Assembly (NCBI GenBank): GCA_963805855.1
Contig: CAWDVW010000006.1
Location: forward strand, 137,693-201,692
DNA: 64,000 nt
Source: Candidatus Dadabacteria bacterium
GTDB lineage: Bacteria; Desulfobacterota_D; UBA1144; Nemesobacterales; CSP1-2
Reading direction: 5' to 3'
This document shows, in pieces, positions 10,395 to 44,185 of the stretch; within the stretch, counting starts at the first letter, position 1, and the number at the start of each line of letters is the position of its first letter. Below the pieces are notes generated by a model. The model did no database searches and was not told the DNA's origin. It was given only the letters and a program-made list of their open reading frames with translations. The translations under genes were made by a program, and so were the position numbers.

Positions 10395-10930
10395 TAGCTT
10401 GCTATAGGCTTTCGCATCGCCTGTCATTGCAAACACATTCGCATTCCTCAGTGCAGGCTCCGTCAAGCAATCTCATTTTCGGATTGCTTCGTCGCTTCGC
10501 TCCCCGCAAATGTAGATGTTAGATTTTTCATGGACAAAATCCAAAAAATAATAAATTTCCTCGAAATTTACTCATCCGTCATCCTCGAATCTTCCCCGCC
10601 AGAAATATGCGGGGACAAGCTTTATCGGGGATCCATTGTTTAATCTTTTATTTTCTTTGTCTTGATACAAAGAAACAAAAATCAAGGGCTGACAAAAAAC
10701 GCTTGCGTATCGAGCGAATGCGAGATATCTATTGCTATAATTAATTAGTTCTCTCAGTCACTTTGCTCCTTCGAGATGACAGTAATGATTGTCACTTTTC
10801 TTAACGCTTCCGGATTTGATTTTGGCAATTTTTTGAATGCCCATTTAAGATCTAAGATACTGTCCCCGAAATATCTAACATCTACAGCAATGACATTTGA
10901 TACGTTCAGTTTATATTATGATACCCTGCA
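10395..10930 (+). repeat. Noncoding repeat family 1, copy A (about 530 bp) with MITE-like core 10576-10783 and TGnTATAAT box at 10733-10741
   Basis: Near-identical to 16670-16930 and to the reverse complement of 26800-27310; imperfect 13-bp terminal inverted repeats CCGTCATCCTCGAA / TTCGAGATGACAG. Confidence 0.85.
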
Positions 10931-11253
10931 GCTTGCTGCAGGGAGTTTCATTTATAAATATAGCAGGATAAATAGAAAGATAACTACCTATTTAGGTCGA
11001 TTAGAGAGTTTTATCGCCGGCTAAAACGGGGGATTTGATGAATGATATCAGTTCCTATATAATTTCAGACAAATTCTCCCGAGGATGAGATTTGTTTTGG
11101 GAACATACACGATGAACACTCAAGAGTCCTAATATCAAGTTGTTCCCTGTGTGATCATGATCTCAGATAAGCTTTAAGGGCTTCATGTGTTTATCAAACC
11201 GCAATCTTTAAACATTAGTGTAAGGAGCAGGCTAGTACCTTTGGAGGTATGAT

Positions 11254-16669: not shown

Positions 16670-16930
16670 TCTTTTTTTTCTTTCTAACTTCTTTGTCTTG
16701 ATACAAAGAAGCAACCCTTCGACTGTGCTCAGGACAAGGGCTTACAAAAAACGCTTGCGTATCGAGCGAATGCGAGATATCTATTGCTATAATTAATTAG
16801 TTCTCTCAGTCACTTTGCTCCTTCGAGATGACAGTAATGATTGTCACTTTTCTTAACGCTTCCGGAATTGATTTTGGCAATTTTTTGAATGCCCATATAA
16901 GATCTAACAGACTGACCACTAAATATCTAA
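16670..16930 (+). repeat. Noncoding repeat family 1, copy B (shorter, lacks left arm)
   Basis: Shares about 230 bp with copies A and C, including the TGCTATAAT box. Confidence 0.85.
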
Positions 16931-17196
16931 CTTCTGCAATGACTGCAAGGACTTGATCTAAAATTGAAGATACCATGCTGCTTGCTGCGGGGGCTTGCTC
17001 AATTTGACATAGTTCAATATGGGGCTGAAGTCGCTCCCACTTTCTGAATTATCCTAAAAAGTAAATCATCACTTTTTTTATTTAAAATCCCTCGGTAGTG
17101 TTATTTTGTGACAATCTGTGGCTGAAAGAATTCATTCATTTTAAAACCTTTCTTAAGTTCATTCGTATTAATCCATAAAATCCAAAAAAAGAGGGA

Positions 17197-26196: not shown

Positions 26197-26784
26197 TCAC
26201 GGTCTCAGATAGCCGGGGGGTACCCCCGCGCGCCGCGCTTCTTCTTGTAGCTTCTCCCTTTCGGGCTTTATAAAACCCAGTTTGAATTCGAGTTGCTTAA
26301 TCCGGTCTTCCAGATTTCTAAGCTCAAGTATTGAACGATCTGCAAAGTACCCGTTGGTAAGCATGTAATCTACTTCTCTTTTCTTATACGTGATTAGATT
26401 TCTCGTGAGCGAAATGTCTTCCAAAATCCTTTTTTCTTCGTTATCAATCTCGAGTGCGCGACTTCTCCAGTACTCTCTTATAGCTTCTTCTTCATCAATT
26501 TCTAAATCTTCTTCAACGCCGTTCAACAAATCATCAGAGGGTGTGGGGGTTGGTAGGTTAGATTTAATTCGATTTTGCGAATGTTTCTTTTTTACCTCCT
26601 CAATAATCTCGACCTCAACTCCACTATCTTTTGGAATTAGCGAGGGATTGTCTGTGAAATGGACTTTTCCCATTTCATCAGTCCATTTATAAATGTCGTT
26701 TGCGTTTGCAAGTTGAGGGACTAAACTCAGAAATAAAATTCCGCATGTTGTGGTCAGAATGTTAGGAAGGAATTTTTTGCACAT
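26197..26784 (-). CDS. DUF4124-domain secreted protein
   Basis: Signal peptide followed by IYKWTDEMGKVHFTD motif; coiled-coil C-terminus. Confidence 0.65.
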   Translation of the reverse strand: MCKKFLPNILTTTCGILFLSLVPQLANANDIYKWTDEMGKVHFTDNPSLIPKDSGVEVEIIEEVKKKHSQNRIKSNLPTPTPSDDLLNGVEEDLEIDEEEAIREYWRSRALEIDNEEKRILEDISLTRNLITYKKREVDYMLTNGYFADRSILELRNLEDRIKQLEFKLGFIKPEREKLQEEARRAGVPPGYLRP

Positions 26785-26799
26785 GCTTTAACTACCAAA

Positions 26800-27310
26800 T
26801 CGCCCGCAGCTTGCGACAGGCTTTCCGCTGTCATGGCAGTGGCACGCACCGCACAGTCATTGCTGCAGATGTTGGATATTTCGTGGACAGTATCTTAGAT
26901 TTTAAATGGGCATTCAAAAAATTGCCAAAATCAATTCCGGAAGCGTTAAAAAAAGTGACAATCATTACTGTCATCTCGAAGGAGCATAGTGACTGAGAGA
27001 ACTAATTAATTATAGCAATAGATATCTCGCATTCGCTCGATACGCAAGCGTTTTTTGTTAGCCCTTGTCCTGAGCACAGTCGAAGGGTTGTTTCTTTGTA
27101 TCAAGACAAAGAAAATAAAAGATTAAACGATGGATCCCCGATTAAAACATTCGAGGATGACGGATGAGTAAATTCCCAAGAAATTTGTCAGTTTTAGGAT
27201 TTTGTCCACGAAATATCTGACACTTACAATTGCGAGCACTTCGACCCGCCTGTGCTGAGTAAAATTGAAGTACTCAGTGCAGGCTCCGGCGAAGCAATCT
27301 GCCACATAAA
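26800..27310 (-). repeat. Noncoding repeat family 1, copy C (inverted orientation)
   Basis: Reverse complement matches copy A over about 450 bp, including both arms and the TATAAT box. Confidence 0.85.
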
Positions 27311-30921: not shown

Positions 30922-31940
30922 AGGGGTCAAATCTTTTGTTTATAAGTTTTGTTTATAATATCTTCGACCTTTTTTCTAAACCTTTTGTCCTTCTCCATTT
31001 TTACCCGTACCCAGTTACAAGCCCATCCTACCACCCCATAACTACTTACTCCAAACATCCCTGCTACCTCATTTAGCGTTATATCACATAACTGCTTTAC
31101 TAAATGCATCCCTACCTTCCTCGCTTCACTATCACTTCCCTTTCTCCACCGAAGCACCTCATCAACTCTTGTCCCATATGCCGTAGCCACATTACTAGCT
31201 ACCTCATTCACCGACGGCCTCAACCATACTCTCTCATGCCGAGGATGCTCTCTTCCTATCTTGCCTATCTTCTCCCTTACCCTTTCCCTAAAATCCTCTC
31301 CTCCTAATATTGGACTCTGGCGACTACGAGTATAAAACTTTTTTAACTTATCCTCATTCCCCGATAAAACAAACTCCTGAAATTCTCTAACACTACGGAA
31401 TTCCTCCAATAACTCAGTTACATTAAGCCACTGCGGTGCCTTTTTTGGTTTCAAATAGTTCTTATGGCTGCTCCACTTGTATTCGTCAGGTTCTTTAGCC
31501 AGTCCAGCCTCAATAGGATTCAAATGTATGTATCGCACTACAGCCGTCAGATATCTATCACCGTCTATCACTATTGCCTTGAATCGACCCCGAAATATGG
31601 GACCGTCTCGTCCATGCATTCTGTTAAATCTCTGTGTGTATAGACCGTCAACATGGCGCATGACACGGGAAAGATTTGCCTCCGGGGTCCTTAGGCAGAC
31701 GTGATAATGGCTACTCATCAGACAGTATGCAAAGACCTCAATACCCCAACGTTCATGGGTCTCAGCGATAGTCTTCAGAAATTCCTCGAAGTCTTTTGTC
31801 TGTATAAATATCTTCTGACGTGCGATCCCACGATTCATCACATGGTATATTGCACCCGGAAACTGAATCCGAAGCGGACGAGACATTATAGATAATTATA
31901 GGGGAATCAATTAGACTTCTAAACAAAAGATTTGACCCCT
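30922..31940 (-). mobile_element. RAYT-like Y1 (HUH) transposase unit flanked by perfect 20-bp inverted repeats
   Basis: AGGGGTCAAATCTTTTGTTT at 30922-30941 and its exact reverse complement at 31921-31940 bracket the gene. Confidence 0.75.
30927..31886 (-). CDS. REP-associated tyrosine transposase-like protein (Y1_Tnp) with C-terminal DnaA_C-like HTH domain
   Basis: HUH motif SSHYHVCL; RAYT-type YIHLNPIEAGLA...YKWSSH tyrosine region; C-terminal segment resembles the DnaA domain IV HTH. Confidence 0.8.
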   Translation of the reverse strand: MSRPLRIQFPGAIYHVMNRGIARQKIFIQTKDFEEFLKTIAETHERWGIEVFAYCLMSSHYHVCLRTPEANLSRVMRHVDGLYTQRFNRMHGRDGPIFRGRFKAIVIDGDRYLTAVVRYIHLNPIEAGLAKEPDEYKWSSHKNYLKPKKAPQWLNVTELLEEFRSVREFQEFVLSGNEDKLKKFYTRSRQSPILGGEDFRERVREKIGKIGREHPRHERVWLRPSVNEVASNVATAYGTRVDEVLRWRKGSDSEARKVGMHLVKQLCDITLNEVAGMFGVSSYGVVGWACNWVRVKMEKDKRFRKKVEDIINKTYKQKI

Positions 31941-32382
31941 AATTTATGTCACGCTGGATGGTCGCGACGAGGGCGCCCTCGTCATCCACCAGTTCGACGA
32001 GCTTCGAGGAGCGAATGACCTCACCACCCTGCTCGTGGAGGTACTCGGTCAGAATCGACTCGGTCACCTCCTCTGAGACGCCGATGTTGAACCCGTAACG
32101 ACTGCCGCAAATTGAGAGGTCGATCTCTCCGAGTACTCTGCCCCCGGAGTGAAGTCGGGCCATGCGCTGCTTGACGCCCACAGTCAATAGGGGCTCGGGG
32201 ATGCCCAGCGACTCAAAGACCTCAAGCGAGCGTGGGTGCACCACTGTCGCCCGGTCCCAGTGCAGCGGCGCTGGATGCGCATCGATGATACGACACTCAA
32301 TCCCCCGGCGATGCAGTTCCGCAGCCAGGAGCAGCCCCGTCGGGCCTGCGCCCACCACGAGAACAGTCACATCAGGAACCAT
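31939..32382 (-). pseudogene. N-terminal fragment of an FAD-dependent monooxygenase (high-GC, foreign)
   Basis: GAGPTGL dinucleotide-binding motif; only 147 aa; GC far above surrounding DNA. Confidence 0.65.
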
Positions 32383-32710
32383 GTCGAATCCACTTGAATA
32401 TCATATTCGCATTTCAGGTCCAAAGAAGATGCTTCTCCCGTGCCTTTGTAGGTGTCTCGGTTAATTCAGTGATGAAGTCTCCCATTCTTTGTGGCAAACT
32501 CATTGGTCATTCGAGGTTCATCGAGGAAAACAGCCATCTGCATCTCGCATTTCTTAGCCGAACTCGTAATTATACTGAATAATTCAATATAATCAGCTGT
32601 CAGGGTGATAGTTAAGGATTCTATTTAATTTAAACCTGTTCGATTCATACACCCCATATGCTCTGACTATATATAAATAATAATCTCAAGTCAAAGAATG
32701 CTTCCTCCGT

Positions 32711-32743
32711 TTAAACCAAGCTTAACAAAAGGGGAGCGGTACA
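32711..32743 (+). repeat. Island boundary motif copy 1 (consensus TTCCAACTTAAACCGAGCTTGACAAAAGGGGAGCGGTACA)
   Basis: One of five same-orientation copies. Confidence 0.8.
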
Positions 32744-32898
32744 TGACATTGACCTACATGCACTCATACATTATCATGAGCTACTATGGAACAACGTAAA
32801 CTGAATGATGCAGAAATTGCGCATATGCAAGTGAGGCTTCCAATTGAGCTGTATAAAATAATTAGACAGGTCGCCTTTATTGAGACAGGGAGGATCGA

Positions 32899-33738
32899 AT
32901 GCCTATCTATATGGATCGTCATGACATCAAAGGCACGACTGCAACTGAAGTTGCAGAGGCCCATCAGAAAGATCTTGAAATCCAAGACAAGTACGGTTGC
33001 AAGGCCCTGACATATTGGTTTGATGAAGCAAATGGTACGACTTTTTGTTTAATAGAGGCTCCGAGAAAACAAGCTGTAGAGCAGATGCACCATGAAGCTC
33101 ATGGACATGTTCCCAGCGAAATCATCGAAGTCAACCCTGGGGCCGTGAAGGCGTTCCTTGGAAGAATCGAGGACCCGCCAATGCCAACCAAGTCGCCTGC
33201 GCCTACCAGTAACGTACCAATAATAGACTCTGCCTTTCGCACTATCATGTTCACGGATATGGAGGGTTCCACGACTATAACAACACGCCTCGGGGACTCT
33301 AAAGCCATGGAACTCCTTCGTACTCATGATGCCATTATTCGCGATGTTATAAAGACTCATGATGGCAACGAAGTTAAACACACAGGTGACGGTTTCATGG
33401 TTTCCTTTTGCTCTGTTTCTCGCGCTGTAGAGTGTGCTATGTCTATTCAAAGGGCTGTTGCTTCTTATAATAATAAGGAGCCCATCGCTACTATCCACCT
33501 TCGCATTGGCATCACTGCTGGTGAGCCCGTCACGGGAGGCCAGGATCTATTTGGCTCCACCGTCCAACTCGCTGCTCGCATCTGTGACCATGCTAAACCT
33601 GAACAGATTTTGGTCACACGTGTAATACAAGATCTGTGCATCGGCAAGAAATTGCCATTTTCCGACCAGGGTGAGATACCGCTACGTGGTTTCGATGAGC
33701 CTGTGCGGCTGTATGAGGTTAGATGGCAGGCGGCATAG
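32899..33738 (+). CDS. DUF4242 - class III adenylate/guanylate cyclase fusion protein
   Basis: N-terminal MPIYMDRHD...DKYG..AL.YWFDE (DUF4242-like); C-terminal cyclase catalytic domain FTDMEGST...HTGDGFMVSF...RIGITAGEPV. Confidence 0.8.
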   Translation: MPIYMDRHDIKGTTATEVAEAHQKDLEIQDKYGCKALTYWFDEANGTTFCLIEAPRKQAVEQMHHEAHGHVPSEIIEVNPGAVKAFLGRIEDPPMPTKSPAPTSNVPIIDSAFRTIMFTDMEGSTTITTRLGDSKAMELLRTHDAIIRDVIKTHDGNEVKHTGDGFMVSFCSVSRAVECAMSIQRAVASYNNKEPIATIHLRIGITAGEPVTGGQDLFGSTVQLAARICDHAKPEQILVTRVIQDLCIGKKLPFSDQGEIPLRGFDEPVRLYEVRWQAA

Positions 33739-33821
33739 TATGGAATTATATAAATTTCACAAATGTAATCCACAAATAAACTTAAATGTGCTCTGCTTAA
33801 TTGTAGCCGAGACAAATTCAA

Positions 33822-33935
33822 GAACACTTACCCCGAAAGTTTTTTAGCAAATACTGTGTGTCAAAGAAACTATTACGCCCCCTGGCAGGGGGGGGTAGGG
33901 TCAGCCGGTAGGGTATGGGGGTAGCCTGCCCCCCT
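33822..33935 (+). repeat. Repeat R3 copy 1 (G-tract-rich, about 110 bp)
   Basis: Matches 41440-41545; contains G8 homopolymer and a G4-like run. Confidence 0.8.
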
Positions 33936-34028
33936 ATAATAGGTCCATAGTTTAAGTTAGATTTTTGATAGAGAACCCTATATGTCGGGGATATTCTGAA
34001 TAGCTAGGAAGCACTACATTCTCTATGG

Positions 34029-34067
34029 TTCCAACTTAATCCGAACTTAATAAAGGGAAGCCGTACA
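34029..34067 (+). repeat. Island boundary motif copy 2 (diverged)
   Basis: TTCCAACTTAATCCGAACTTAATAAAGGGAAGCCGTACA. Confidence 0.65.
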
Positions 34068-34130
34068 CTGATTTCTCACTATCTTTGGCTCTAGGAGTCA
34101 ATTTTGGCTTTTTCGTCCTTGTGAAATTAC

Positions 34131-34586
34131 CTACCGAACCCTTACTACAGGAACAGCCCCTAGAACTTGGACATATTTTGTTTGGTAACTCCCTGCTCCC
34201 ATCCCAATAGGCATTCCACCTTTTAGATAGGTGCCCTTGCTGTGAGGAGGAATTGTGATGGGAAGTACCGCAGTGGTACTGCTTACCTGTTGGCCAGCGT
34301 TGTTATATGAGGTGGAGTAGTAGTTGAGTTTTATTTCAATGTCCTTATACGCTATGTCCGCTGTATTCTCAATCGTGACATTACTAATCATAGCTACTCC
34401 ACCCCAGGCAATAAAAAAAGACCAGTCAGTAACTTTAATGTACCACTCAGGATGTTGTTTCATTGAAATCGTAGGTTCCATATCTTGAGCCTTGGCAAAT
34501 GGAGAAAGTAGGACCAGTAGGATAAACAGTTTTGTCGTTATATGGTTCATGTTTGTATTCTGAGAGCTAGAAGTATTAGTTACCAC
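34131..34586 (-). CDS. Small secreted protein, paralog family (member 2)
   Basis: Signal peptide; conserved block shared with 23807-24256; bracketed by motif copies 2 and 3. Confidence 0.55.
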   Translation of the reverse strand: MVTNTSSSQNTNMNHITTKLFILLVLLSPFAKAQDMEPTISMKQHPEWYIKVTDWSFFIAWGGVAMISNVTIENTADIAYKDIEIKLNYYSTSYNNAGQQVSSTTAVLPITIPPHSKGTYLKGGMPIGMGAGSYQTKYVQVLGAVPVVRVR

Positions 34587-34617
34587 TATTATACACTAGG
34601 CTAATCTCCGTCTTTAT

Positions 34618-34656
34618 TCCAGTTTAAACCGAGCTTGACAAAAGGGGAGCGGTACA
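34618..34656 (+). repeat. Island boundary motif copy 3
   Basis: TTCCAGTTTAAACCGAGCTTGACAAAAGGGGAGCGGTACA. Confidence 0.8.
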
Positions 34657-34986
34657 AACTACCCTTTGTACCAATCCATATAGAGACTTTGCAACAACCA
34701 CAATTCCACCTGTCAGAGGGTGTGAGATTCAGTAGCAATCTGTCTATTCCGTAAAGACAATAAAGAATGTCTGCCGGCATTCCACCCGGCTGTTGTGCGA
34801 CGTTCTCTACAGGTAGGATGAGGCAGACTGTTTTCTCATATTAACTCTTCCTCTGTTTTTTTTAATTCAACGGTAAGTGAGCCTATTATTTGGGTTAGCT
34901 CTTGATTCTTTTTACGAAGGCGAATGGCGGATAAGGGAAGTGGTGCGATGTGCGATGATCTGGAGGGAAAAAGAAGGAGGCTGGAT

Positions 34987-35225
34987 CATCAGATAAGCAG
35001 GCTTTTTAGGGCTGAGGGCAAAGTGCCTGCCAAATCACGACCCCTTCGTGCTTGCTCACAGGATAGCGGTTCTCGACCATCTGGCTAAAGGGAGATTCTA
35101 TTGGGGTGTCGGGTCCGGTACCTTTATAGGTGACTTTGAGGCATTCGGGATTGACCCAAAAACAGGAGAGCAAAGGGAATTAACCAGTGACTCACTGGAT
35201 TTTATCCTTAATTTGTGGAAAAACC
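34987..35225 (+). repeat. Left arm of about 240-bp inverted duplication (includes the 5' end of the LLM pseudogene)
   Basis: Reverse complement of 40308-40555 at near identity. Confidence 0.9.
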
Positions 35226-35892
35226 CGAAGCCCGGTTTTTATGGAAACAACAGATGGAAATTTCGGGTACCAGAACCGCAAAATGACGTAGGTCTTGGCG
35301 TAGATATAAGTCCGTATCAGAGACCGCATCCCCCAATAGCCGTGGCGGGGATAACCGAAAGGTCTGAGACGCTGAGAATCGCCGGAGAACAGGGGATGGA
35401 TACCCATGAGCATTAATTTCATACCAAAAAATGTGTTGATGACGCATTGGTCATCGGTCGAAGAAGGAGCCCGAATGTCAGGAAAAAACCCGGATCGCTC
35501 GAAATGGCGGATTGCAAGGGATGTCTATGTCGCCGAGACTACCGAGGACGCCCGTCGGGAGGTAAAGCAGGGAACACTGTCTAGGGATTTTACAGACTAC
35601 TTTTTCAAACTAGTCCCAAGGATTAGGGGCAATTTAAAACACCTTTAAAGTCGATAAATCTATGCCCGATTCGGATGTGACTGCTGACTACATGATCGAT
35701 AATCTTTGGTTAGTCGGAAACCCTGATGATGTTGTCGACCAAATTAAAGAAGTTTATCACCATGTTGGCGGCTTTGGGGTGCTGCTTGTGATGGGACATG
35801 AATGGAAACCCAAAGACAACTGGGTCAGATGCATGAAGCTATTGGTTGAAGAGGTACTGCCGCGCTTGAAAAATTTAGGGAATAACGCTTAA
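35048..35892 (+). pseudogene. Luciferase-like monooxygenase (LLM) family flavin oxidoreductase, disrupted by two frame changes
   Basis: Homology continues through three frames (35048-35416, 35406-35648, 35662-35892); elevated GC. Confidence 0.7.
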
Positions 35893-36256
35893 GGTAGGCT
35901 TCGTCGCCTCCATACTAATCCTCCCAGATCAATGGTGAGCTTCCCTTACGGTGGCAGACGGTACGACGCTCGGATTCCACCTGCATCGATTAATCCGCAT
36001 GCCTAATCATGAACCCCTCCATCAGCGTCTGCAGCATGACGGGTGTCTCCTCCATCGGGTAGTGGCCCGATTCGATCTAGCAAACTCTATGTTGTCATGC
36101 CATTTCGTAAAAGTTGCGCGCTGCGCCTCGATCCGCTCGTTGGGGAGGTCGTATTTTCCGCAGATTACCAGAAATGGCAGAGTGACACAGCCCGCTTCAG
36201 GTGAAAAATCGTGTAGTGTAAACATATCTAGGTAGCCTCGCGCCGCTGCAGCGGTT

Positions 36257-36300
36257 CGGGTCTGGCGCGCGCGGCGCATCTTAAACTTCTTCCACTGTGT
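36257..36300 (+). repeat. 44-bp inverted repeat partner of 40201-40244
   Basis: TCGGGTCTGGCGCGCGCGGCGCATCTTAAACTTCTTCCACTGTGT and its exact reverse complement. Confidence 0.85.
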
Positions 36301-36348
36301 CGAAAGTCGGTTACCCATGGCAAAGTCAGGAGTTCATGGAATTTCTCA

Positions 36349-36771
36349 TCATCGGTGATGGAGTCGATGGCTTTCTGCCGCAACTCTTCGGGCATTTGAA
36401 GCCGGCTGCCGAGACCGCAGCGATAGCAACCACACTCTTGAGCGCTCTGGCACGTCGATTGCCAACCGCTCGACGACCATGCCGGTCATTGAGAAGCCAA
36501 CCAAATGAACACGATTCCAACTAAGGTGATCGATCAGCTCGAGCGTATCAGCGGCAGCCTCGGTTTCGTTGTACTCACCCGTGAGGTGGATGGAACGGCC
36601 GTACCCGCGTACGTCGGTCAGCACATAGGTGAATCGATCTACATCGAGATACTGCATAACCGGCTCCCAACTCGTGCAGTCACCCATCCAATCGTTGTAG
36701 ACAACAACCTTCTCGGTCCATGCCCGAGCAATCTGTGTCCCAAGAGTGCCAATGGTCACGACTCCCGTCAC
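36349..36771 (-). pseudogene. Alpha/beta-hydrolase fragment (high-GC, foreign)
   Basis: HLVGFSMTG nucleophile elbow in a 140-aa truncated ORF; GC-rich. Confidence 0.5.
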
Positions 36772-37331
36772 AATGCTGCAACGCTGAACTATAACGCCAC
36801 CCGCGGATGCCCAGCATCAAATCGCGGGCCCAACATCAATCTCAAATATTTATTCTACTCGTTCCAAATTTAAAACGCACATTACACTGCGCGTCAAAGT
36901 GATTGACAATTTTTGTTACCAAAGATACCAATGATAACTAAGCGATTAATTCATTCTCCCAATGAACTAGGAGAATGGAACCTGATTACCAAAATGTGTC
37001 GTTACAGGTCTAGGAAATTCTTCTTTTGCGGATCAAAAATTAAGATTCGGTCTATTTTGTACAGGGTTAAATTAAGTTTTTATATGATCTATACACTCAG
37101 AACCAAGATGGCCTTCTCACAGTTCGTCTTCTCGTGGTGCTGCGCGTCCCCCCCTAGACCAAAAACGCCCAATATCCCAAGACTGATTTCCCTCGCCATT
37201 GTTCGACCGATTTGTCTGGTGACACTGCTGTTCATGATGGTTTCAAGAGTTCCTTTATCAGCTGATGACCTTGATCTTCCAACCTTCATTTTCCATATCG
37301 CCACGAAGTTGAAAAAATACTTAATAATCAT

Positions 37332-37643
37332 TTGGTAAAAAAGACAAGTTTTTCCAATGAATTGTATCTCTGCGAAAAGTGTTACAGACTTTATGCGAGA
37401 TTCTACGTAAGGATAGATTACGATGAAGATAAGACTTATACGACAGTGTACGTATGTAGCAAGTGTGAAGAGTTACTTAAAAGTATAAGGGAAGAAGAGA
37501 TACCCTTAATACCCTGTGCTAAATGTGGGGAAGAAAGCTCTAGAATACCGCCTGAGTTTGCTATGGGATTAAACTCCGATTTATGGAACGTATGGTACCA
37601 GCCTGTTGTTTGTCCTGCGTCAACTTTTATTAAGGTTACTTAG
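37332..37643 (+). CDS. Zinc-ribbon protein (three CxxC pairs)
   Basis: CEKC...CSKC...CAKC. Confidence 0.45.
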   Translation: MVKKTSFSNELYLCEKCYRLYARFYVRIDYDEDKTYTTVYVCSKCEELLKSIREEEIPLIPCAKCGEESSRIPPEFAMGLNSDLWNVWYQPVVCPASTFIKVT

Positions 37644-37693
37644 AAATGAACAGGGTAAGTCTAATTGATTTTTGAGAGTGGAGAGGTGTTAAT

Positions 37694-38071
37694 GTGAGCA
37701 AAACTGAAACGCCAATGATTAGAAGGTACTGGGAGATGGTTGGTGGTACATTGATTGAAGAATTTCCTGTTGTTAAGGGAACAAGGTACCAAGGAGCGAG
37801 GAGAATAGATGCGATAATAATTAAAAATGGTGAGAGGAGAATAGCAAAATCAAATGAAGTTTCTTTAAAAGGTAAGGATATTATTTGTGTTCAAGCTAAA
37901 AGTCATAGACTTGGTATGTATTTAATGGGACAGACGTTTTTCTCTGAGCAGCTATTAAGGAGATTTGAGCCGAGTAGTGTCTCATGCGTTGCTTTATGTG
38001 CCAAAGACGATGCAGTCCTAAGACCATTAATAGAACAGTATCCACAGATGAAAGTTGTTGTAATTGATTAG
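37694..38071 (+). CDS. Hypothetical protein, possible restriction-endonuclease-like (PD-(D/E)xK / TnsA-like QxK variant) fold
   Basis: RIDAIIIK (Asp strand)...KDIICVQAKSH (D-hhhh-QxK) pattern; speculative. Confidence 0.35.
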   Translation: MSKTETPMIRRYWEMVGGTLIEEFPVVKGTRYQGARRIDAIIIKNGERRIAKSNEVSLKGKDIICVQAKSHRLGMYLMGQTFFSEQLLRRFEPSSVSCVALCAKDDAVLRPLIEQYPQMKVVVID

Positions 38072-38208
38072 AGTTGAAATCTCAGAATATCATAACGAGG
38101 ATGAGTTATTAGCTATGTTAGCACCATGGCTACGATATACTGCTCCCCATTAAGGAGTGAGTGTGATTAAGTGAGAAAATATCTGTAATAGACAATGGGG
38201 GAGCAACC

Positions 38209-38484
38209 ATGAAACGAAGAAGATGGGATTCTAAAGCCAAGACAAAAATAGTACTTGAAGGTCTGTCCGGTAGACCAGTATCAGACATTTGCAACGACTT
38301 CGGAATACATCAGAACCAATACTACACCTGGCGGGACAAGTTTTTATCAGAAGCCCACAGAGCCTTTGAATCCAAAAAAGACGGTGCACAAGTAAATCGC
38401 CTTCGTAAAAAGAATCAAGAGCTAACCCAAATAATAGGCTCACTTACCGTTGAATTAAAAAAAACAGAGGAAGAGTTAATATGA
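38209..38484 (+). CDS. IS3-family transposase OrfA (HTH)
   Basis: Typical IS3 OrfA with leucine-zipper-like C-terminus. Confidence 0.8.
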   Translation: MKRRRWDSKAKTKIVLEGLSGRPVSDICNDFGIHQNQYYTWRDKFLSEAHRAFESKKDGAQVNRLRKKNQELTQIIGSLTVELKKTEEELI

Positions 38485-38642
38485 GAAAACAGTCTGCCTC
38501 TGTATCCTTTAGTAACGAATACTTACTTACACGAATAAAGGATATAAAAGCGGAACATCCTTTCTGAGGTTATAGAAGAGTATGGGCATATCTAAGATAT
38601 ATAGATGGACTAGTAGTTAACAAGAAGCGTGTATACAGGCTT

Positions 38643-39251
38643 ATGAGAGAGAATAACCTTACCGTTAAGCCTAACACAAGACTAATAGCAAAGAGGATAT
38701 CAGGAAGACCAAAGCCAAGACCTGATAGACCCAGACAGTGGTGGGGAGTAGACATGACAAAGGTCATGACTGACAGTGGCCGGGTATATGTAGTAATAGT
38801 ACTGGACTGGTATACGAAGAAGATAGTAGGTTACTACAGTGGAACAAGAGCCACAACCATAGAATGGCTGGAAGCTTTAGAGAAAGGACTAAACCGAGAG
38901 TTCCCCGGAGGGGTGAGAGGACATGAATTAAAGCTCATGAGCGATAATGGGAGTCAGCCTACTTCACTTAGTTTTATGAAAGCATGTTCCAATCTGGAAG
39001 TAGAGCAAGCATTTACCAGTTACAATAACCCGAAGGGTAATGCGGATACGGAGAGAATGATAAGAACGATGAAAGAGGAGCTATTTTGGCTAAGAGAGTG
39101 GAAGAGTGAAAGAGAGCTTAGTCATGAGCTGGATAAATGGATTAAGTATTACAACACAAGCTACCTTCATTCAGCACTTGGATACCGAACACCGATTCAG
39201 TTAGAAGAGGAATATTACAGGAATATCACTTCACATGAAAATGCTGCTTGA
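38643..39251 (+). pseudogene. IS3-family transposase OrfB (integrase core), N-terminal part interrupted by a stop
   Basis: DDE/rve core; upstream in-frame region carries a TGA stop. Confidence 0.75.
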
Positions 39252-39363
39252 GTAATTTACTTCATAGTAATTACAACTTTTCCTTAGAGCCTTGGCTATA
39301 GTATAATAAGGGTGTAATAGATTTCATTTTAAGCCCTGTATTTAGATAGTCAGGGGTAATTAT

Positions 39364-39849
39364 ATGGCTCAACCAACTGACATAGCTCAGAATCATATTG
39401 TAAAAGACCTGATGCTTTATCCTGTTTCCCCCTCAATACTTTATTATGTTGAACTGCCGGGAACCAAGTGCAAGATTATCCAAAACAATGGTAACAAACT
39501 CTACTGCGCAAAATATCCTATGCTTAAAGGACTGTTCAGAAAGGACATGGATGAAACTAAGAAATACGGAAAAATAATCTGCTATAAAGTGGCAGAGAAA
39601 CTGGACAACTTCGGCTTTTTCACCTCCGATGAGCGCCCTGAATATGGAATATCGTACGGTATATCCGAAAAAGAATTCGCGTATATGTTTGAGCTAATCG
39701 GGGCTAAAGAAGGCGAGCACTTAGTTGCAATGTTCGCATATCCGGAAAGAGAGGCACTTGAGTCAAAAATCTTTTTTGAAAAACTGCTTAGAAAGACTTA
39801 CTTCTCCTATATTCTAGATAAAAAAATTTTCAATATGTTTTTTGGTTAA
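39364..39849 (+). CDS. Hypothetical protein
   Basis: Clean ORF, no motif; followed by motif copy 4. Confidence 0.4.
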   Translation: MAQPTDIAQNHIVKDLMLYPVSPSILYYVELPGTKCKIIQNNGNKLYCAKYPMLKGLFRKDMDETKKYGKIICYKVAEKLDNFGFFTSDERPEYGISYGISEKEFAYMFELIGAKEGEHLVAMFAYPEREALESKIFFEKLLRKTYFSYILDKKIFNMFFG

Positions 39850-39945
39850 GTAAACTCTGTTTTCATCCCCGTAGGGCTCCCTCGGCTCTTGCTCATAAAG
39901 CAGCTAATAGTTACAAGGTTAGGTTGGGAATGAACGAATACTATA

Positions 39946-39985
39946 ATCCAACTTAGACCGAGCTTGACAAAAGGGGTGCGGTACA
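39946..39985 (+). repeat. Island boundary motif copy 4
   Basis: ATCCAACTTAGACCGAGCTTGACAAAAGGGGTGCGGTACA. Confidence 0.8.
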
Positions 39986-40200
39986 ACGACCATTTAGACT
40001 TAATACATTATATGACGATTGGGAAAACGCACCATCTTACTCGGGATGACCAATATGGATAACAAAATCGTGCTTGAATGGAGAGGTGCCTTCGACTGGT
40101 TTGGCTCATCCGAGAACGTCACGGCCAGCCCTGACACTATGAACCCCGCTGCTGGGAACCTCTCTCTGTATACACGGAGTTCCTTAAGGGAATGAGCTCG

Positions 40201-40244
40201 ACACAGTGGAAGAAGTTTAAGATGCGCCGCGCGCGCCAGACCCG
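40201..40244 (-). repeat. 44-bp inverted repeat partner of 36257-36300
   Basis: Exact reverse complement. Confidence 0.85.
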
Positions 40245-40307
40245 AGAACCTATGCTGAGAGTAACCTCGCTTCTCTATCCTGTCTTCTTATTGTTATTGG
40301 TTCAGGC

Positions 40308-40555
40308 GGTTTTTCCACAAATTAAGGATAAAATCCAGTGAGTCACTGGTTAATTCCCTTTGCTCTCCTGTTTTTGGGTCAATCCCGAATGCCTCAAAGT
40401 CACCTATAAAGGTACCGGACCGACACCCCAATAGAATCTCCCTTTAGCCAGATGGTCGAGAACCGCTATCCTGTGGGCAAGCCCGAAGGGGTCGTGATTT
40501 GGCAGGCACTTTGCCCTCAGCCCTAAAAAGCCTGCTTATCTGATGAGTGGTTTAA
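40308..40555 (-). repeat. Right arm of about 240-bp inverted duplication
   Basis: Reverse complement of 34987-35225. Confidence 0.9.
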
Positions 40556-40598
40556 TTCCAAATGGATGGCGGGTGTCTTTCCTCAGCAGGCATGGTCC

Positions 40599-40637
40599 GT
40601 CGCGGGTGATGATAATCGCCCGGAAACAAGCCAGGCC
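40599..40637 (+). repeat. 39-bp inverted repeat partner of 41369-41407
   Basis: GTCGCGGGTGATGATAATCGCCCGGAAACAAGCCAGGCC and its reverse complement. Confidence 0.85.
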
Positions 40638-40956
40638 AAGACCCAGGGGCACAAGCTCGCACAAGCCATCATCCCCCCCGTAGAGAAAGCCTTGACCCTG
40701 AAGTTCTGGGCTGCCCTCTTCTCCCTCAGGATTACATCAGCCACAAGCATCTCTCCCGATAGTATGTATACGTCCAGCGCACCCCTCATCGGGCACACGC
40801 CCAGATGGAAAACACAGGCTATGTTAATACTTCACCTCGACGAAGGAGTAACAATAACACCAAACTTTGCGCTATAAGACCTATAATCGGGAATTATAGG
40901 CATGCTCGCAGTCTAATTAATAGTTAGGCACAGAAAAGCGCAGGAACTGTCATCCA

Positions 40957-41283
40957 TTGGTAACAAGCTCTGCATACTTTACCACGAACGACGGGGTGAG
41001 GCTGCATTACCTCGAAGCAGGTCACGGGAGACCACTCGTGCTGCTGCCGGGGTGGACACAGCCGGCCGAGACGTATATCTCGCGGTTCAAATCAGACCCT
41101 TACTCCATTCTTATTGCTGAAATGCTCTTGAGGAAAACTACAGCCTTACAGGTTGAAAGAATATTTCGCTTTACTTCGGGAAAGGGTGACGCTAAAAAAT
41201 TAGCCAGGGAAGGAATAAAACAGGGGTTTACCCATTTTGTTTCTGTCGGGGGGGACGGTACTGCACATGAAGTGGTGAATTGA
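40957..41283 (+). pseudogene. Chimeric fragment: alpha/beta-hydrolase N-terminus joined to a DAG-kinase/YegS-like GGDGT segment
   Basis: High-GC first 45 codons, then AT-rich FVSVGGDGTAHEVVN and stop. Confidence 0.4.
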
Positions 41284-41439
41284 AGGCGACAAAGCCAAAC
41301 TTGATGACCTGGTTTCAACGCTCGAGCCAAGCATTGGGTAGGAATCGGAAAACGAAATACTGGATATTGGCCTGGCTTGTTTCCGGGCGATTATCATCAC
41401 CCGCGACCGTAGAGGCGGCTTCTAAGTGAATTGATGCAT

Positions 41440-41545
41440 AACCTACCCCGAAATTTTTAGCAAATACTGAGTGTCAAAGAAGCTATTACGCACCCTGCCA
41501 GGGGGGGGGTAGGGTCAGCCCGTAGGGTATGGGTACGTAGGCCAG
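41440..41545 (+). repeat. Repeat R3 copy 2
   Basis: Matches 33822-33935. Confidence 0.8.
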
Positions 41546-41779
41546 AGCTTTCATTTTCTTCTCTATAACCCCACAGACAAAAGAAAGCAATAAGGTATAA
41601 CAACCATGATTTCACCTGTCAGAGGGTGTGAGGTGTAGAAACCCACTGTTAGCGGGCATACGCTTTTATGACCAAGAGCCTAGGGAGCCGTGTGACTCCC
41701 TCCGCCTTGGGTTATACGTTTCTCGCTGGTGCAGGTGGGTGCATGCTGGTTTGGGCTACCACTCAGACGACCTGGATTA

Positions 41780-42298
41780 TCACGGCGTGAGCGTAGGTGA
41801 AGGCTCGCAACTGTATGATGCTTGTGCAGGGTCGATTTGGACGATGTTCTTCTGAGCCAGTTCGGTTGTGTACTGCGCTAGTCGGCATAGACACGTCTCA
41901 AATTGGGCTTCAGAAGTGCCGTTTGATTCGGGTTGGACGTCGCAGAACGGTGGTGCATTCCCGAGCGTGAAGGCTACGGAGCACCCTAGGCTGCTGCCAT
42001 CGCGTATCGCGGTATTGGCGAACCTGTTCCCGTCGCCCACTGGCTGGGATAATGCACAACCATCAGATGGTAGCGAGTCGCATTGGGATGATGTGCAGTT
42101 GTCGAAGTCGATATTCTCGCAACTGCAAAATACGCCTCCCCAGCAATCTGTGGTCATGGGTACCTTGAAGTAGTCGCATGGGCACTCTGCTACTGCAGCG
42201 AGCTCGGCACATGGGTCGCCGCCACCGCCATCACCATCACATCCAATGCCTACAGCTAGCAGAAATAGTAACGCTAAGAATATCTTATGAGGCTTCAT
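41780..42298 (-). CDS. Cys-rich lipoprotein (high-GC), function unknown
   Basis: Signal peptide plus LAVGIGC lipobox; about 20 Cys. Confidence 0.5.
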   Translation of the reverse strand: MKPHKIFLALLFLLAVGIGCDGDGGGGDPCAELAAVAECPCDYFKVPMTTDCWGGVFCSCENIDFDNCTSSQCDSLPSDGCALSQPVGDGNRFANTAIRDGSSLGCSVAFTLGNAPPFCDVQPESNGTSEAQFETCLCRLAQYTTELAQKNIVQIDPAQASYSCEPSPTLTP

Positions 42299-42395
42299 AA
42301 TATCCCCCCCCCTTACGATTTTATTTGAGTAATACGCCTGACAGCACTTGGCAACTTTATCATATGTTTGATGCGAAATGCAAGGATATTATGAT

Positions 42396-42430
42396 TCCAA
42401 CTTAAACCGCCGTTGACAAAAGGGGAGCAG
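42396..42430 (+). repeat. Island boundary motif copy 5, abutting the truncated integrase
   Basis: TTCCAACTTAAACCGCCGTTGACAAAAGGGGAGCAG. Confidence 0.75.
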
Positions 42431-42435
42431 GATAG

Positions 42436-42726
42436 GCAATAAAAGAAGCCGGTGTTAAATGCACCTTCCACAGTTTAAGACATACATTCGCAAGCAACCT
42501 GGTTACACGCTTGAAAGAGGATATGGTAACGGTAATGGAGTTAACCGGACATAAAGATATTAGGATGCTAAAACGATATAGCCATACAAAAAAAGAGCTA
42601 AAAAAAGAGGCTATGTCAACATTGGGGAATCATCTAAAATCCCTCGATTTGGATACATCCATAGACACCTCCTCGGACACCTCTACAGGTGACAAGATTT
42701 TCACCAAATTATCTGTTATATCTTAA
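42436..42726 (+). pseudogene. C-terminal fragment of a tyrosine recombinase (phage-type integrase), 5'-truncated
   Basis: In-frame HSLRHTFASNL (box II) ... LTGHKDIRMLKRYSH (catalytic Tyr region); no N-terminal domains; directly adjacent to tRNA genes. Confidence 0.75.
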
Positions 42727-42749: not shown

Positions 42750-42830
42750 TGGTGGCGTCCCCGAGGGGATTTGAACCCCTGTTACCGCCTTGAAAGGGCG
42801 ATGTCCTAGGCCAGGCTAGACGACGGGGAC
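42750..42830 (-). tRNA. tRNA-Glu (anticodon UUC)
   Basis: Cloverleaf with anticodon loop CUUUCAA, encoded CCA, acceptor GTCCCCG/CGGGGAC. Confidence 0.85.
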
Positions 42831-42835
42831 GGGAG

Positions 42836-42910
42836 TGAGCCGTGCAGGATTCGAACCTGCGACCCACTGCTTAAAAGGCAGTTGCTCTACCTAGCTGAGC
42901 TAACGGCTCA
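42836..42910 (-). tRNA. tRNA-Lys (anticodon UUU)
   Basis: Anticodon loop CUUUUAA, T-loop GGTTCGAATCC, 5 nt from tRNA-Glu. Confidence 0.85.
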
Positions 42911-43026: not shown

Positions 43027-44185
43027 ATGGTCCTGGATTTAGATCGGAATCAGTTTAAGAACTTTTCATTGATTATCACATCCAGTTTTCTGTTTTTCTG
43101 TAATTTTTCTTCCTTTTTTCTTTTGCCTCTATTTATAAAAAGCCTGGGAGGGAATGAAAGAAACATAGGCTTTGTGATGGGTTCATTTGGAATCACGTCC
43201 ATAGGGTCTATCCCTATCGTTTCCTACTTATTAGACAAATATGGAAGGCGTAAATTCCTTGTGCTCGGGAGTTTAGTTATGAGTTTGTCTTCATTTGGCT
43301 TCATTTTCATAAAAGATCTAAGCCCTCTTCTATATGTATTCAGATTATTTCAGGGGATTGGTTTTGCTTTCTTTTTCACTTCTGCGGCTACCGCCGCGGT
43401 AGATGTAATACCTGAATCGAGAAGGGGCCAGGGTCTCGGAATATTTGGGGCATTTCTTATTTTAACCTATGCCATAGGTCCGAGTATTGGTGAATTGGTC
43501 ATTGATAAATTTGGATTTAGTCTGTTTTTTATAATCACATCATCATTCAGCCTAGCTGCTACCTTCTCTGTTTTTTTTATAAGGGATGTTGCATTTAAAC
43601 GATCGACAGACACAAATGCACTCCGTTTTTTTTACCTCGCATTCTCCAAGAGATACTTTGTATTACTACTTACCAATATAATCGCAGCAAGCGGCTTTGG
43701 CTCTGTACTATACTTCATATCGGTATACCTAAAATCCAAGGGGTTGAATGTCTCTTATTTCTTCGTTACCTATACCATTACCGTTGCAGCTTTGAGGATT
43801 TTAGGCGGTAGAATCTCTGACGTCTTTGGAAGGAAGGGTGTAGCATCTCCGAGCCTGTTTCTATTTTCACTGGCGATAGCATCGGTTGCCTTAATAAATT
43901 CGGTATATATGATTGTTCTGGTCTCAGTATTATTCAGTGTCGGATATGGAATGTTATATCCAACGCTCAGCGCCCTTGTCATTGATAAGTCATGGGCCGG
44001 ACGAAAGGGGAAAGGCAATGGGCGCTTATAATGCGAGCTTCAGCATGGGTGTTAATTTTCCAACGTTTGCCTTTGGTATAATTGCTAAAAATTGGGGTTT
44101 TGTTGATATGTACCTTATATCGGCATTCATTGTTTTCGTAGGGTTTTTAATATTCACCTTTTTTGAAGCCAAGCGGTACTCTTGA
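43027..44185 (+). CDS. MFS transporter with a frameshift near 43990-44030 (two ORFs 43027-44031 and 43913-44185)
   Basis: About 12 TM helices across both frames; could be a real pseudogene or a sequencing/assembly indel. Confidence 0.7.

Follow-up and report, generated by a model that had tools for sequence, protein, structure and literature searches.

IS911, a member of the IS3 family, has 36-bp inverted repeats (IRs), employs −1 frameshifting, and carries a −35 box in its right end (IRR) and a −10 box in its left end (IRL) (PMC2909936, PMC9330008). In transporter IS (tIS) and transposable modules (TMo), represented by ISEcp1, ISPme1 and possibly the IS3 member ISPpy1, a single insertion sequence (IS) and an adjacent gene move jointly, as a unit that is bounded by an IRL and a distal IRR-like sequence and has an outward promoter upstream of the cargo (PMC9330008).

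In a 64-kb stretch of Candidatus Dadabacteria DNA, referred to here as the window, a short motif recurs five times within a genomic island. It is very probable that this motif is the IRR of an IS3-family IS found commonly in Candidatus Dadabacteria as well as in related lineages without cultured members, and that the assignments of its copies and the transposition scheme described below hold jointly.

The repeated motif and its copies

The initial annotation had reported a repeat of about 40 bp, with five copies on the same strand and confined to one region. A scan of the whole window with an nhmmer profile of 29 distinct copies bears out the count and the distribution, with only five matches in 64 kb (E 1e-16 to 2e-5), all on the + strand within 32699-42435. 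Dinucleotide-shuffled sequence yields no matches. The repeat itself is real and measures about 45 bp, conservation stopping outside this length when the five copies are aligned with their flanks, and the 40-mer originally quoted is a consensus, to which the best copy has 2 mismatches. It is composed of an inner box ATTCCAACTTAAA, a variable spacer of about 6 nt, and a terminal box CTTGACAAAAGGGGAGCRGTACA, the last base of which is the transposon tip, and it is highly conserved across genomes of 35–55% GC. The hexamer TTGACA, located 16 nt from the tip, had been described as perfect, which is correct for copies 3 to 5 and not for copies 1 (TTAACA) and 2 (TTAATA).

Copies 1, 3, and 5 are orphan right ends. 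Copy 1 (32699-32744, +), which has lost most of its inner (left) box, was aligned by nhmmer over profile positions 16-52 at 32709-32745 (E 4e-11); its terminal box reads TGTACCGCTCCCC on the − strand (32731-32743), and there is no IRL-type partner upstream of it. Copy 3 (34612-34657, +), the best-scoring copy in the window (E 3.6e-16), is a solo IRR for which no IRL partner was found, and copy 5 (42390-42434, +; terminal box TATCCTGCTCCCC on the − strand, 42422-42434) is a solo IRR whose tip abuts a truncated integrase gene. Copy 2 (34024-34071, +), the most diverged of the five and the bearer of one indel, forms the right end of a MITE-like derivative of about 150 bp, while copy 4 (39941-39985, +) closes a complete element of 1850 bp (38136-39985). 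The motif is non-palindromic, as first described, with no inverted partner near copies 1, 3, and 5 and with minimum-energy folds that differ among the copies.

A complete element with a passenger gene

The element closed by copy 4 is ordered as IRL, orfA, −1-frame orfB, passenger ORF, and IRR. Reading of the sequence and comparison of the flanks reveals a target-site duplication, ACGA, at 38132-38135 and again at 39986-39989, directly after the GGTACA tip of copy 4, which ends at 39985. The IRL (38136-38180, +; TATACTGCTCCCCATTAAGG...ATTAAGTGAG), which starts with TATACTGCTCCCC, is also present at the left end of the intact relatives L035, L045, L049, L050, and L053. Compared with copy 4 in reverse complement, it is identical at 27 of 45 positions, and the motif profile matches it weakly, over the terminal 17 nt only (38135-38151; E 0.13). 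The orfA gene (38209-38484, +) encodes a 91-aa protein of the HTH_Tnp_1 type, 84% identical to that of L035, and has a run of A residues near its end, at about 38455, after which orfB, the gene of an rve-type DDE transposase, continues in the −1 frame (38481-39251, +; 86% identity over 256 aa to P0001 by tblastn). Pfam PF01527 (HTH_Tnp_1) is recorded on orfA homologues and the domains HTH_21, rve, and rve_3 are recorded on homologues as well, and P0001 scores 179 bits against the NCBIfam model NF033516 "IS3 family transposase" (cut-off 160). The orfB of the window is a pseudogene, with an in-frame TGA at the HPFWGYRR motif, and the element is complete but now defective. Between orfB and the IRR lie a conserved module of about 45 nt with a TATAAT (39298-39345, +), which also precedes unrelated genes in L010/L023 and L050/L051, and the passenger ORF, taken from the ORF list (39364-39849, +), whose 161-aa product has no Pfam match and a weak GatE-like match.

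Related elements in other genomes

Together with three metagenomic relatives, the window provides four independent complete elements, each with IRL, orfA, orfB, passenger gene, motif, and direct repeats. All four are flanked by target duplications of 3-4 bp: ACGA in the window, GGGA in L035 (1493-4369), GCAA in L053 (3154-5682), and TAC in L051 (5655-8059). These duplication-flanked elements establish the motif as a terminal inverted repeat of an IS3-family DDE transposase. The IRL and the reverse-complemented motif have 27–33 of 45 positions in common, a likeness concentrated in the terminal 13-nt box and an inner TTAAGTTG box, and the IRL of L050/L051 is matched by the motif profile, inverted, over 42 profile positions (E 0.002-0.005). 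IS3-family inverted repeats are imperfect, measure about 20-40 bp and run 5′-TG...CA-3′. In autonomous copies the IRL begins with TA (TATACTGC) and the IRR ends with CA; a TG start is restricted to derivatives (TGACCTGC, TGTACTGC).

The inner box and spacer of the motif are homologous to the final codons of orfB plus its stop (17 of 22 positions match between TCACATTTAAACGCAGCTTGAC of L035 and TCCAACTTAAACCGAGCTTGAC of the motif), the TGA within TTGACA being the fossil of that stop codon, and in L035, L045, and L049 the profile matches weakly at precisely the orfB stop. Right after the orfB stop, intact copies have only a degenerate IRR, and a well-conserved one lies beyond the passenger gene in every complete element. 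A mildly new feature is that the passenger gene between orfB and IRR is a different one in every complete element; the cargo comprises the 161-aa protein, a Tricorn/PD40-like protein, pentapeptide-repeat proteins, and a DUF1254/DUF1214 protein.

Because a pattern search found orfB directly left of the motif in none of about 38 copies, most copies must be orphan or miniature. Both orientations are present in L005, L010, L013, L023, and L031, and all copies are co-oriented in the window (5/5), L029 (5/5), and L052 (4/4), which is not explained by random insertion. Variation among strains, which the initial annotation had proposed to test, does break at the motif: L010 and L023, 99.8% identical over 4.5 kb, diverge inside it.

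It is conceivable, though unlikely, that this IS3 lineage works as a transposase-based gene-capture system, with a cargo slot, accumulating modules of a gene plus an IRR, and a reservoir that is reshuffled. Single genes, often encoding secreted proteins, would then be swapped into the slot between orfB and the distal IRR, the slot having its own conserved promoter module, and orphan modules would pile up in the same orientation beside tRNA/integrase islands. The arrays would represent a reservoir reshuffled by recombination within the IRR (as between L010 and L023) or by the use of alternative IRRs, the whole being a functional analogue of integrons built on a DDE transposase.

Transposition scheme and promoter-like features

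Judging from the sequence, the OrfAB transposase would bind the motif and its inverted partner, the IRL (TATACTGCTCCCC...TTAAGTTGG), cut at the tips, and move the element by a copy-out/paste-in mechanism that leaves the 3-4-bp target duplications. By analogy with IS911, TTGACA may act as an outward −35 box, which at the circle junction would come to face TATACT, a −10-like sequence with which the IRL starts. The sequence is compatible with such a predicted junction promoter, in which the distance from −35 to −10 would be 19-20 bp with a circle spacer of 3-4 bp, that is, long. A head-to-tail IRR-C-IRL junction is present in the chromosome in L012.

The hexamer had also been considered as a shared promoter or transcription-factor site. 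What remains of this proposal is the putative outward −35 box; a shared promoter is not supported, since contexts vary and no −10 box is conserved, and elsewhere the motif is found in both orientations and not at the fixed distance upstream of genes that would indicate a promoter. More broadly, the motif could be mainly a transcription signal, such as a sigma-70 −35 element, a transcription-factor site, or a promoter-terminator module of a secreted-protein regulon, its likeness to a transposon end going back to ancient domestication. This is very unlikely, even if TTGACA itself, the high conservation across genomes of differing GC content, a TATAAT or TATGAT about 19 nt downstream in L001_3256, L021, L026, and L033, weak leftward promoter matches at copies 4 and 5, and the many neighbouring genes for secreted or Cys-rich proteins speak for it. 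Copies of either orientation are located at 5′ ends, at 3′ ends, and within truncated genes, at varying distances from start codons, the −10 box downstream of the tip is not conserved, and promoter-like sites are not enriched in the region (20 vs. 17.6 ± 4.8 in shuffles). The sharp GTACA boundary and the target duplications are, moreover, features of a transposon.

Miniature derivatives and solo ends

With the motif as an IS3-family end, copy 2 is in all probability best explained as part of a non-autonomous, MITE-like derivative of about 150 bp (33922-34071, +) and a candidate mobile unit, whose left end is IRL-like (TAGCCTGCCCCCCTATAATAGG...TTAAGTTAGA) and whose right end is the motif. It is 74–84% identical over about 115-150 nt to sequences of L012, L023, L029, L020, and L010, and an HMM of the long form matches 33910-34083 (E 1e-45). 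An alignment of this group (A3) has 12 members. The ~150-nt forms are short, non-coding, and multicopy, and have inverted ends; by eye, no target-site duplications were seen around about 10 copies inspected (A3 and also L049, copy 2 included). Other derivatives are an 85-nt deletion form keeping both ends, in L010/L023, and a form composed of IRL, orfB tail, and IRR, in L012 and L029.

A hairpin just upstream or downstream of some copies (copy 3, the long form) and the alternating stems GAATG/CATTC and ATGAA/TTCAT of the long form could point to a structured RNA, either a small RNA or a cis-regulatory leader, of which the motif would be a part. This is extremely improbable, as Rfam yields nothing even with E values of up to 1, the predicted folds of the five copies disagree, and the apparent long-range pairing is simply that of IRL against IRR.

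As expected of a transposon terminus, the GTACA tip abuts truncated genes in other genomes: a truncated rve-type transposase, IS481-like by eye, in L002, and, both likewise truncated, an IS3-type orfB in L010 and an rve-type transposase, apparently of the IS3 type, in L031. In L029 the sequence at the tip looks by eye like the 3′ part of a tRNA-Leu, with no tRNA called there by ARAGORN. For the solo ends and the co-oriented array, we infer an origin in which insertion, deletion of adjacent DNA, and recombination among copies would have left ends stranded, some of which would still neighbour a gene that was perhaps formerly their passenger.

The island and its integrase

The gene arrangement first described around the copies is correct: copies 1 and 2 flank a SCO4226-like/adenylate-cyclase gene (32899-33738), and copies 2 and 3 flank a small secreted-protein ORF of 151 aa on the − strand (34131-34586), copy 3 being situated 26-60 nt upstream of the latter. 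An inverted orfA fragment (34839-34922, −) belongs to 104 nt of sequence (34820-34923) that match 38397-38500 with 100% identity.

Copy 5, said to sit where the integrase loses its N-terminus, marks a real breakpoint, as the copy ends at 42434 and the integrase-homologous frame starts at 42436. The remnant consists of the C-terminal ~96 aa of a tyrosine integrase (42436-42726, +; Pfam PF00589 positions 119-170 of 172) and corresponds in tblastn to about residues 230-309 only of the 324-aa L052 integrase; the ~230 missing N-terminal residues were not found elsewhere in the window. Beside it lie tRNA-Glu(UUC) and tRNA-Lys(UUU) (42753-42909, −; ARAGORN and Rfam), and this region is the attachment region of the island. 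An intact homologue in L052 adjoins a tRNA-Asn, with integrase and tRNA in the same order as in the window. The one integrase present is of the ordinary kind found on tRNA-linked islands and has been truncated by the element, and copy 5 would result from the joining of an orphan end to the middle of its gene.

The initial annotation had interpreted the copies as a recombination-site array. They are ends used in the recombination of mobile DNA and do mark real junctions; they are not attC-like or integrase att sites. A scheme in which the motif is an attC-like boundary or a serial-integration att repeat, and a tyrosine recombinase builds a single-gene cassette array, fits the co-oriented copies bracketing single genes, the copy abutting an integrase beside tRNA genes, the divergence of two near-identical strains within the motif, and the similar arrays in L029 and L052. 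It is nevertheless largely refuted and highly improbable. The motif has neither the R″/L″-L′/R′ palindrome of attC nor a conserved pairing partner, the pairing at copies 2 and 4 being that of IRL against IRR; it has no tRNA or Rfam match and no likeness to a tRNA 3′ end, and the tRNA-Glu 3′ end occurs once in the window. Both orientations occur in five other loci, the integrase is a truncated victim and not a partner, its intact L052 relative has no motif at the att side, and the four elements flanked by target duplications show DDE-type transposition with the motif as an end. The array is thus no cassette-recombination system; it is ordinary transposon debris in a tRNA-linked island undergoing decay.

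Comparison with known systems

Like integron attC arrays, the locus has short co-oriented repeats between mostly single genes, with an integrase gene nearby. Unlike attC, the repeat is non-palindromic, is used by a DDE transposase and not by IntI, and is found in either orientation at other loci; neither attI nor intI is present, and the sole integrase is a C-terminal remnant of 96 aa adjoining tRNA genes. Copy 2 and its ~150-nt and ~85-nt relatives resemble MITEs in being short, non-coding, multicopy, and intergenic, and in being bounded by the IRL-like and IRR ends of a parent element; they differ in that no target-site duplications were detected around them and that many copies are one-ended (IRR only).

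With IS911 and the IS3 family, the element shares OrfA (HTH) and an OrfB (rve DDE) that overlaps it in the −1 frame downstream of a run of A, imperfect terminal IRs of about 40 bp in which a terminal and an inner box are conserved, a CA tip, target duplications of 3-4 bp, a putative outward −35 box in the IRR with a −10-like IRL start, and head-to-tail IRR-IRL junctions. It differs in the passenger gene that separates the functional IRR from orfB in 4/4 complete copies, which is atypical for IS3, in the degenerate IRR next to orfB, in the TA start of the autonomous IRL in place of the usual TG, in the predicted junction-promoter spacing of 19-20 bp, and in its short OrfB (256 aa). As in tIS/TMo, a single IS and an adjacent gene lie between an IRL and a distal IRR, with a promoter module before the cargo. 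The distal end of tIS/TMo is a fortuitous IR-like sequence, whereas here it is a genuine IRR, highly conserved and retaining a fossil of the orfB tail, and the cargo varies between copies.

The repeated motif and its setting

The repeat array is a real but ordinary finding: an IS3-family element, so far uncharacterised, lies together with miniature derivatives and orphan ends of it in a decaying, tRNA-linked island. The motif of ~45 bp (consensus TATGATTCCAACTTAAACCGAGCTTGACAAAAGGGGAGCGGTACA) occurs in five copies, all on the + strand, at 32699-32744, 34024-34071, 34612-34657, 39941-39986 and 42390-42435 (copies 1 to 5), each of which was recovered by pattern search, repeat finder and profile search. 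The initial annotation was right that these copies are confined to the island, as none was found elsewhere in the 64 kb, and shuffled sequence gave 0 matches. The exact 40-mer quoted there, on the other hand, is matched by none of the five copies, although the motif itself is genuine, and the perfect TTGACA ascribed to it is found in copies 3-5 but not in copies 1 and 2. Copy 2, with one indel, is the most diverged, the left part is missing from copy 1, and an alignment of all five (A1) reveals no conservation beyond the motif. As described before, copies 1 and 2 bracket an SCO4226-like/adenylate-cyclase gene, and copies 2 and 3 a 151-aa secreted-protein ORF on the - strand.

The island is rich in gene fragments (31939-32382, 35048-35416, 36349-36771 and 40957-41283), among them the N-terminus of an FAD-binding monooxygenase, a luciferase-like piece and alpha/beta-hydrolase pieces, which fits repeated IS-mediated rearrangement. 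Inverted duplications between 34820-36303 and 38397-38500 plus 40198-40546 (two perfect, of 104 and 48 nt, and one of 240 nt with 98.8% identity) scatter orfA pieces and luciferase-like and hydrolase gene fragments; their source is an inversion-duplication that happened very recently, or else a chimeric assembly. A 319-aa gene on the - strand (30927-31886), whose product combines an IS200-like Y1 transposase domain with a DnaA_C-like HTH domain, is flanked by a 35-nt inverted repeat (30922-30956/31906-31940, 86% complementary); this unit, 30922-31940, abuts the 3'-truncated monooxygenase gene (31939-32382) and may be a separate, RayT-like mobile unit. Two short repeat families lie near motif copies, 33826-33919/41441-41533 (90% identical), which holds a G/C-rich hairpin (CCCCCTGGCAGGGGGG), and 34693-34743/41599-41649 (78%); in an empty-site comparison using these flanking repeats, the boundaries did not coincide with the motif. 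Elsewhere in the window, a repeat of ~300-400 nt is present in three copies (10505-10943, 16679-16992 and 26854-27234, 82-93% identical, the third inverted), one of which overlaps the ORF 26197-26784, and a tandem duplication (91%) covers 2630-2937 and 2984-3291.

The motif as the right end of an IS3-family element

The window contains one IS3-family transposase pair, orfA at 38209-38484 and orfB at 38481-39251, the latter shifted to the -1 frame behind a stretch of As and with an in-frame TGA within its HPFWGYRR motif. Close OrfB homologues score 179 bits, which passes the cut-off of 160 for the NCBIfam model "IS3 family transposase". Upstream of orfA lies TATACTGCTCCCCATTAAGG, the sequence with which, in five different contexts, the region conserved in intact relatives begins. 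Its first 13 nt, when reverse-complemented, give the final 13 nt of the motif. This terminal box occurs six times in the window, in + orientation at 38136 and in - orientation within each motif copy, and the first right-facing copy downstream of 38136 is copy 4. The tetranucleotide ACGA directly precedes 38136 and recurs immediately after 39985, delimiting an element at 38136-39985. Three relatives, obtained via OrfB homologues, follow the same pattern, with target duplications of GGGA (L035, 1493-4369), GCAA (L053, 3154-5682) and TAC (L051, 5655-8059). In the four complete elements, the left terminal inverted repeat (IRL) resembles the reverse-complemented motif at 27-33 of 45 positions, which fall in the terminal box and an inner TTAAGTTG box, and the motif profile matches the inverted IRL over 42 profile positions (E 0.002-0.005). 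Together, the paired ends, the target duplications and the IRL matches show that the motif is the right terminal inverted repeat (IRR) of an IS3-family element. A proximal IRR just after orfB was rejected as the true end, since it has no target duplications whereas the distal motif does.

The end of orfB in L035, TCA CAT TTA AAC GCA GCT TGA C (S H L N A A stop), is identical at 17 of 22 positions to the motif's TCC AAC TTA AAC CGA GCT TGA C. The inner box and spacer are homologous to the 3' end of orfB, its final codons and stop included, a homology that makes the TGA within TTGACA a fossil orfB stop and the apparent coding signal of the motif a fossil orfB tail. Weak motif-profile matches fall exactly at the orfB stop in L035, L045 and L049, and intact copies carry only a degenerate IRR after this stop. 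Two coding readings, a small ORF that ends in the motif and a gene start at a conserved antisense ATG on the motif's left edge, were discarded, as the frames are inconsistent across copies. Against a structured RNA, Rfam returned no match other than two tRNAs, both with gathering thresholds and with E relaxed to 1, and the apparent pairing is that of IRL with IRR.

Miniature derivatives and solo ends

Copy 2 belongs to a family of ~150 nt that is found in at least 10 other places (12 members aligned in A3), bounded on the left by an IRL-like sequence (TGACCTGCCCCCCTATAATAGG...TTAAGTTAGA) and on the right by the motif. No target duplications were seen around the 150-nt copies on inspection by eye, and they are therefore no more than putative mobile units. 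Further derivatives include an 85-nt IRL+IRR form (L010/L023), deletion forms composed of IRL, orfB tail and IRR (L012, L029), and a head-to-tail IRR-C-IRL junction (L012). Copies 1, 3 and 5, which have no IRL partner, are solo right ends.

Occurrence in other genomes

When one genome per species was searched for the exact pattern, full-length motif copies turned up in three MAGs, assigned to Candidatus Dadabacteria, "Desulfobacterota" and Thermodesulfobacteriota, and ~20 metagenome contigs contain true copies, often several each. Matches in Nitrospiraceae (L003) and in human-gut and other high-GC sequences (L006, L008, L009, L014 and others) share only the 21-23-nt search pattern and were treated as chance. 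The viral contig scan gave no match, and exact-protein look-ups of window genes gave none or just a 1.1-kb contig. The conserved unit consists of two boxes, ATTCCAACTTAAA and CTTGACAAAAGGGGAGCRGTACA, split by a variable spacer of ~6 nt, and its right boundary after GTACA is sharp in the metagenome copies. The motif frequently coincides with contig ends, as expected of a dispersed repeat. A regulon promoter fails as a reading, since position and orientation are inconsistent, a -10 box is missing and there is no enrichment; single copies may nevertheless start or end transcription.

Over 4.5 kb, the loci L010 and L023 share 99.8% identity; they then part within a motif copy, immediately past its inner box, and are unrelated from there on. 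Dispersed ends thus also serve as recombination points between strains, and the variability at motif boundaries anticipated in the initial annotation is partly borne out. The break falls inside the repeat and not at its tip, which fits homologous recombination.

Co-oriented arrays are found in the window (5/5), L029 (5/5) and L052 (4/4). IS911 is able to target sequences resembling its own ends, and by analogy such a preference could build arrays of this kind. Cys-rich secreted proteins with a terminal IPTL-CTERM-like sorting signal (IPT[LM][ST][EQ]WGL...RR[RK]K) are encoded at L001 3368-3886, L005 1170-1727 and L011 2481-2792; downstream of each gene comes a GGGAGC-TTCG-GCTCCC-T-run hairpin and, after it, the motif. 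Homology among these three loci covers the 3' end of the gene, the hairpin and the IRR, and the hairpin looks like two abutted IS ends with deleted tips.

The integrase junction

Copy 5 ends at 42434 and, as the initial annotation had observed, marks the point of integrase truncation, as from 42436 a tyrosine integrase is represented by its C-terminal ~96 aa (Pfam PF00589 positions 119-170 of 172), followed by tRNA-Glu and tRNA-Lys on the - strand. Right of the tRNAs, a transporter-like membrane-protein gene (43027-44185) apparently consists of two overlapping frames, 43027-44031 and 43913-44185, owing to either a frameshift or a sequencing error. The N-terminal piece of the integrase is absent throughout the window, and the full-length relative sought was found in L052, where the fragment aligns to residues ~230-309 of an intact 324-aa homologue that adjoins tRNA-Asn in the same gene-then-tRNA layout.

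The initial annotation had read the geometry of the copies as that of an attC-like or serial-integration array. Folds of +/-120 nt and inverted-repeat searches around each copy, however, show no shared structure, motif orientations relative to one another and to genes are mixed in other loci (L005, L010, L013, L023, L031), the window holds a single tRNA-Glu 3' end, which speaks against a tRNA-derived att repeat, and the enzyme does not fit either, so that integron or att-type recombination fails. The GTACA end repeatedly adjoins truncated sequences, namely an rve-type transposase (L002, IS481-like by eye), an IS3-type orfB (L010), a truncated rve-type transposase of apparent IS3 type (L031) and a putative tRNA-Leu 3' portion (L029, by eye and with no ARAGORN call there). 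From the geometry and these parallel cases, we infer that the integrase is a casualty and not an enzyme acting on the motif. The IS end at copy 5 would have been inserted and its other side then lost, joining the IRR tip to mid-gene; alternatively, an adjacent deletion mediated by the transposase would produce the same junction. In L029, the tRNA-like piece is followed by a 5'-truncated integrase and primase/helicase-like genes, and L029 1-9105 is a degraded integrative element beside a window-like array.

Passenger genes and comparison with IS911

A well-preserved IRR lies beyond a gene downstream of orfB, termed passenger, in all four complete elements, and this architecture is the sole mildly unusual aspect. 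In the window the passenger is a 161-aa ORF; that of L035 encodes a 484-aa Tricorn/PD40-like protein, and those of L051 and L053 encode pentapeptide-repeat proteins. Each complete copy has a different one, and the element may offer a route for moving secreted-protein genes. A conserved TATAAT module of ~45 nt (TATAGTATAATAAGGGTGTAATAGATTTCATTTTAAGCCCTG) precedes the passenger in the window (39298-39345) and in L050/L051 (L051 ~6820-6870), and an unrelated gene in L010/L023 (L010 1892-1984). The three downstream genes are unrelated, two of them directly following an IS3 orfB, and the module may be a portable promoter or leader.

With the array explained by a well-understood mechanism, a candidate new cassette-recombination system is removed. 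The ends, target duplication and non-autonomous derivatives are now defined for an uncharacterised IS3-family element of uncultured Dadabacteria-like bacteria, which aids annotation and accounts for contig breaks and mosaic gene fragments in such MAGs.

IS911, the reference member of the IS3 family, has 36-bp inverted repeats and -1 frameshifting. Its transposition circle carries a strong promoter, assembled from an outward -35 box in the IRR and a -10 box in the IRL (PMC2909936; PMC9330008). In the present element, the motif's TTGACA lies 16 nt from the tip and the IRL starts with TATACT. The circle junction would read IRR-(3-4 nt)-IRL, i.e. ...GGGGAGCRGTACA NNN TATACTGCTCCCC..., and a 3-4-bp spacer would give a -35/-10 spacing of 19-20 bp, which is long. 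By analogy with IS911, this layout is compatible with a circle-junction promoter, and the IRR-IRL junction of the present element may act as one.
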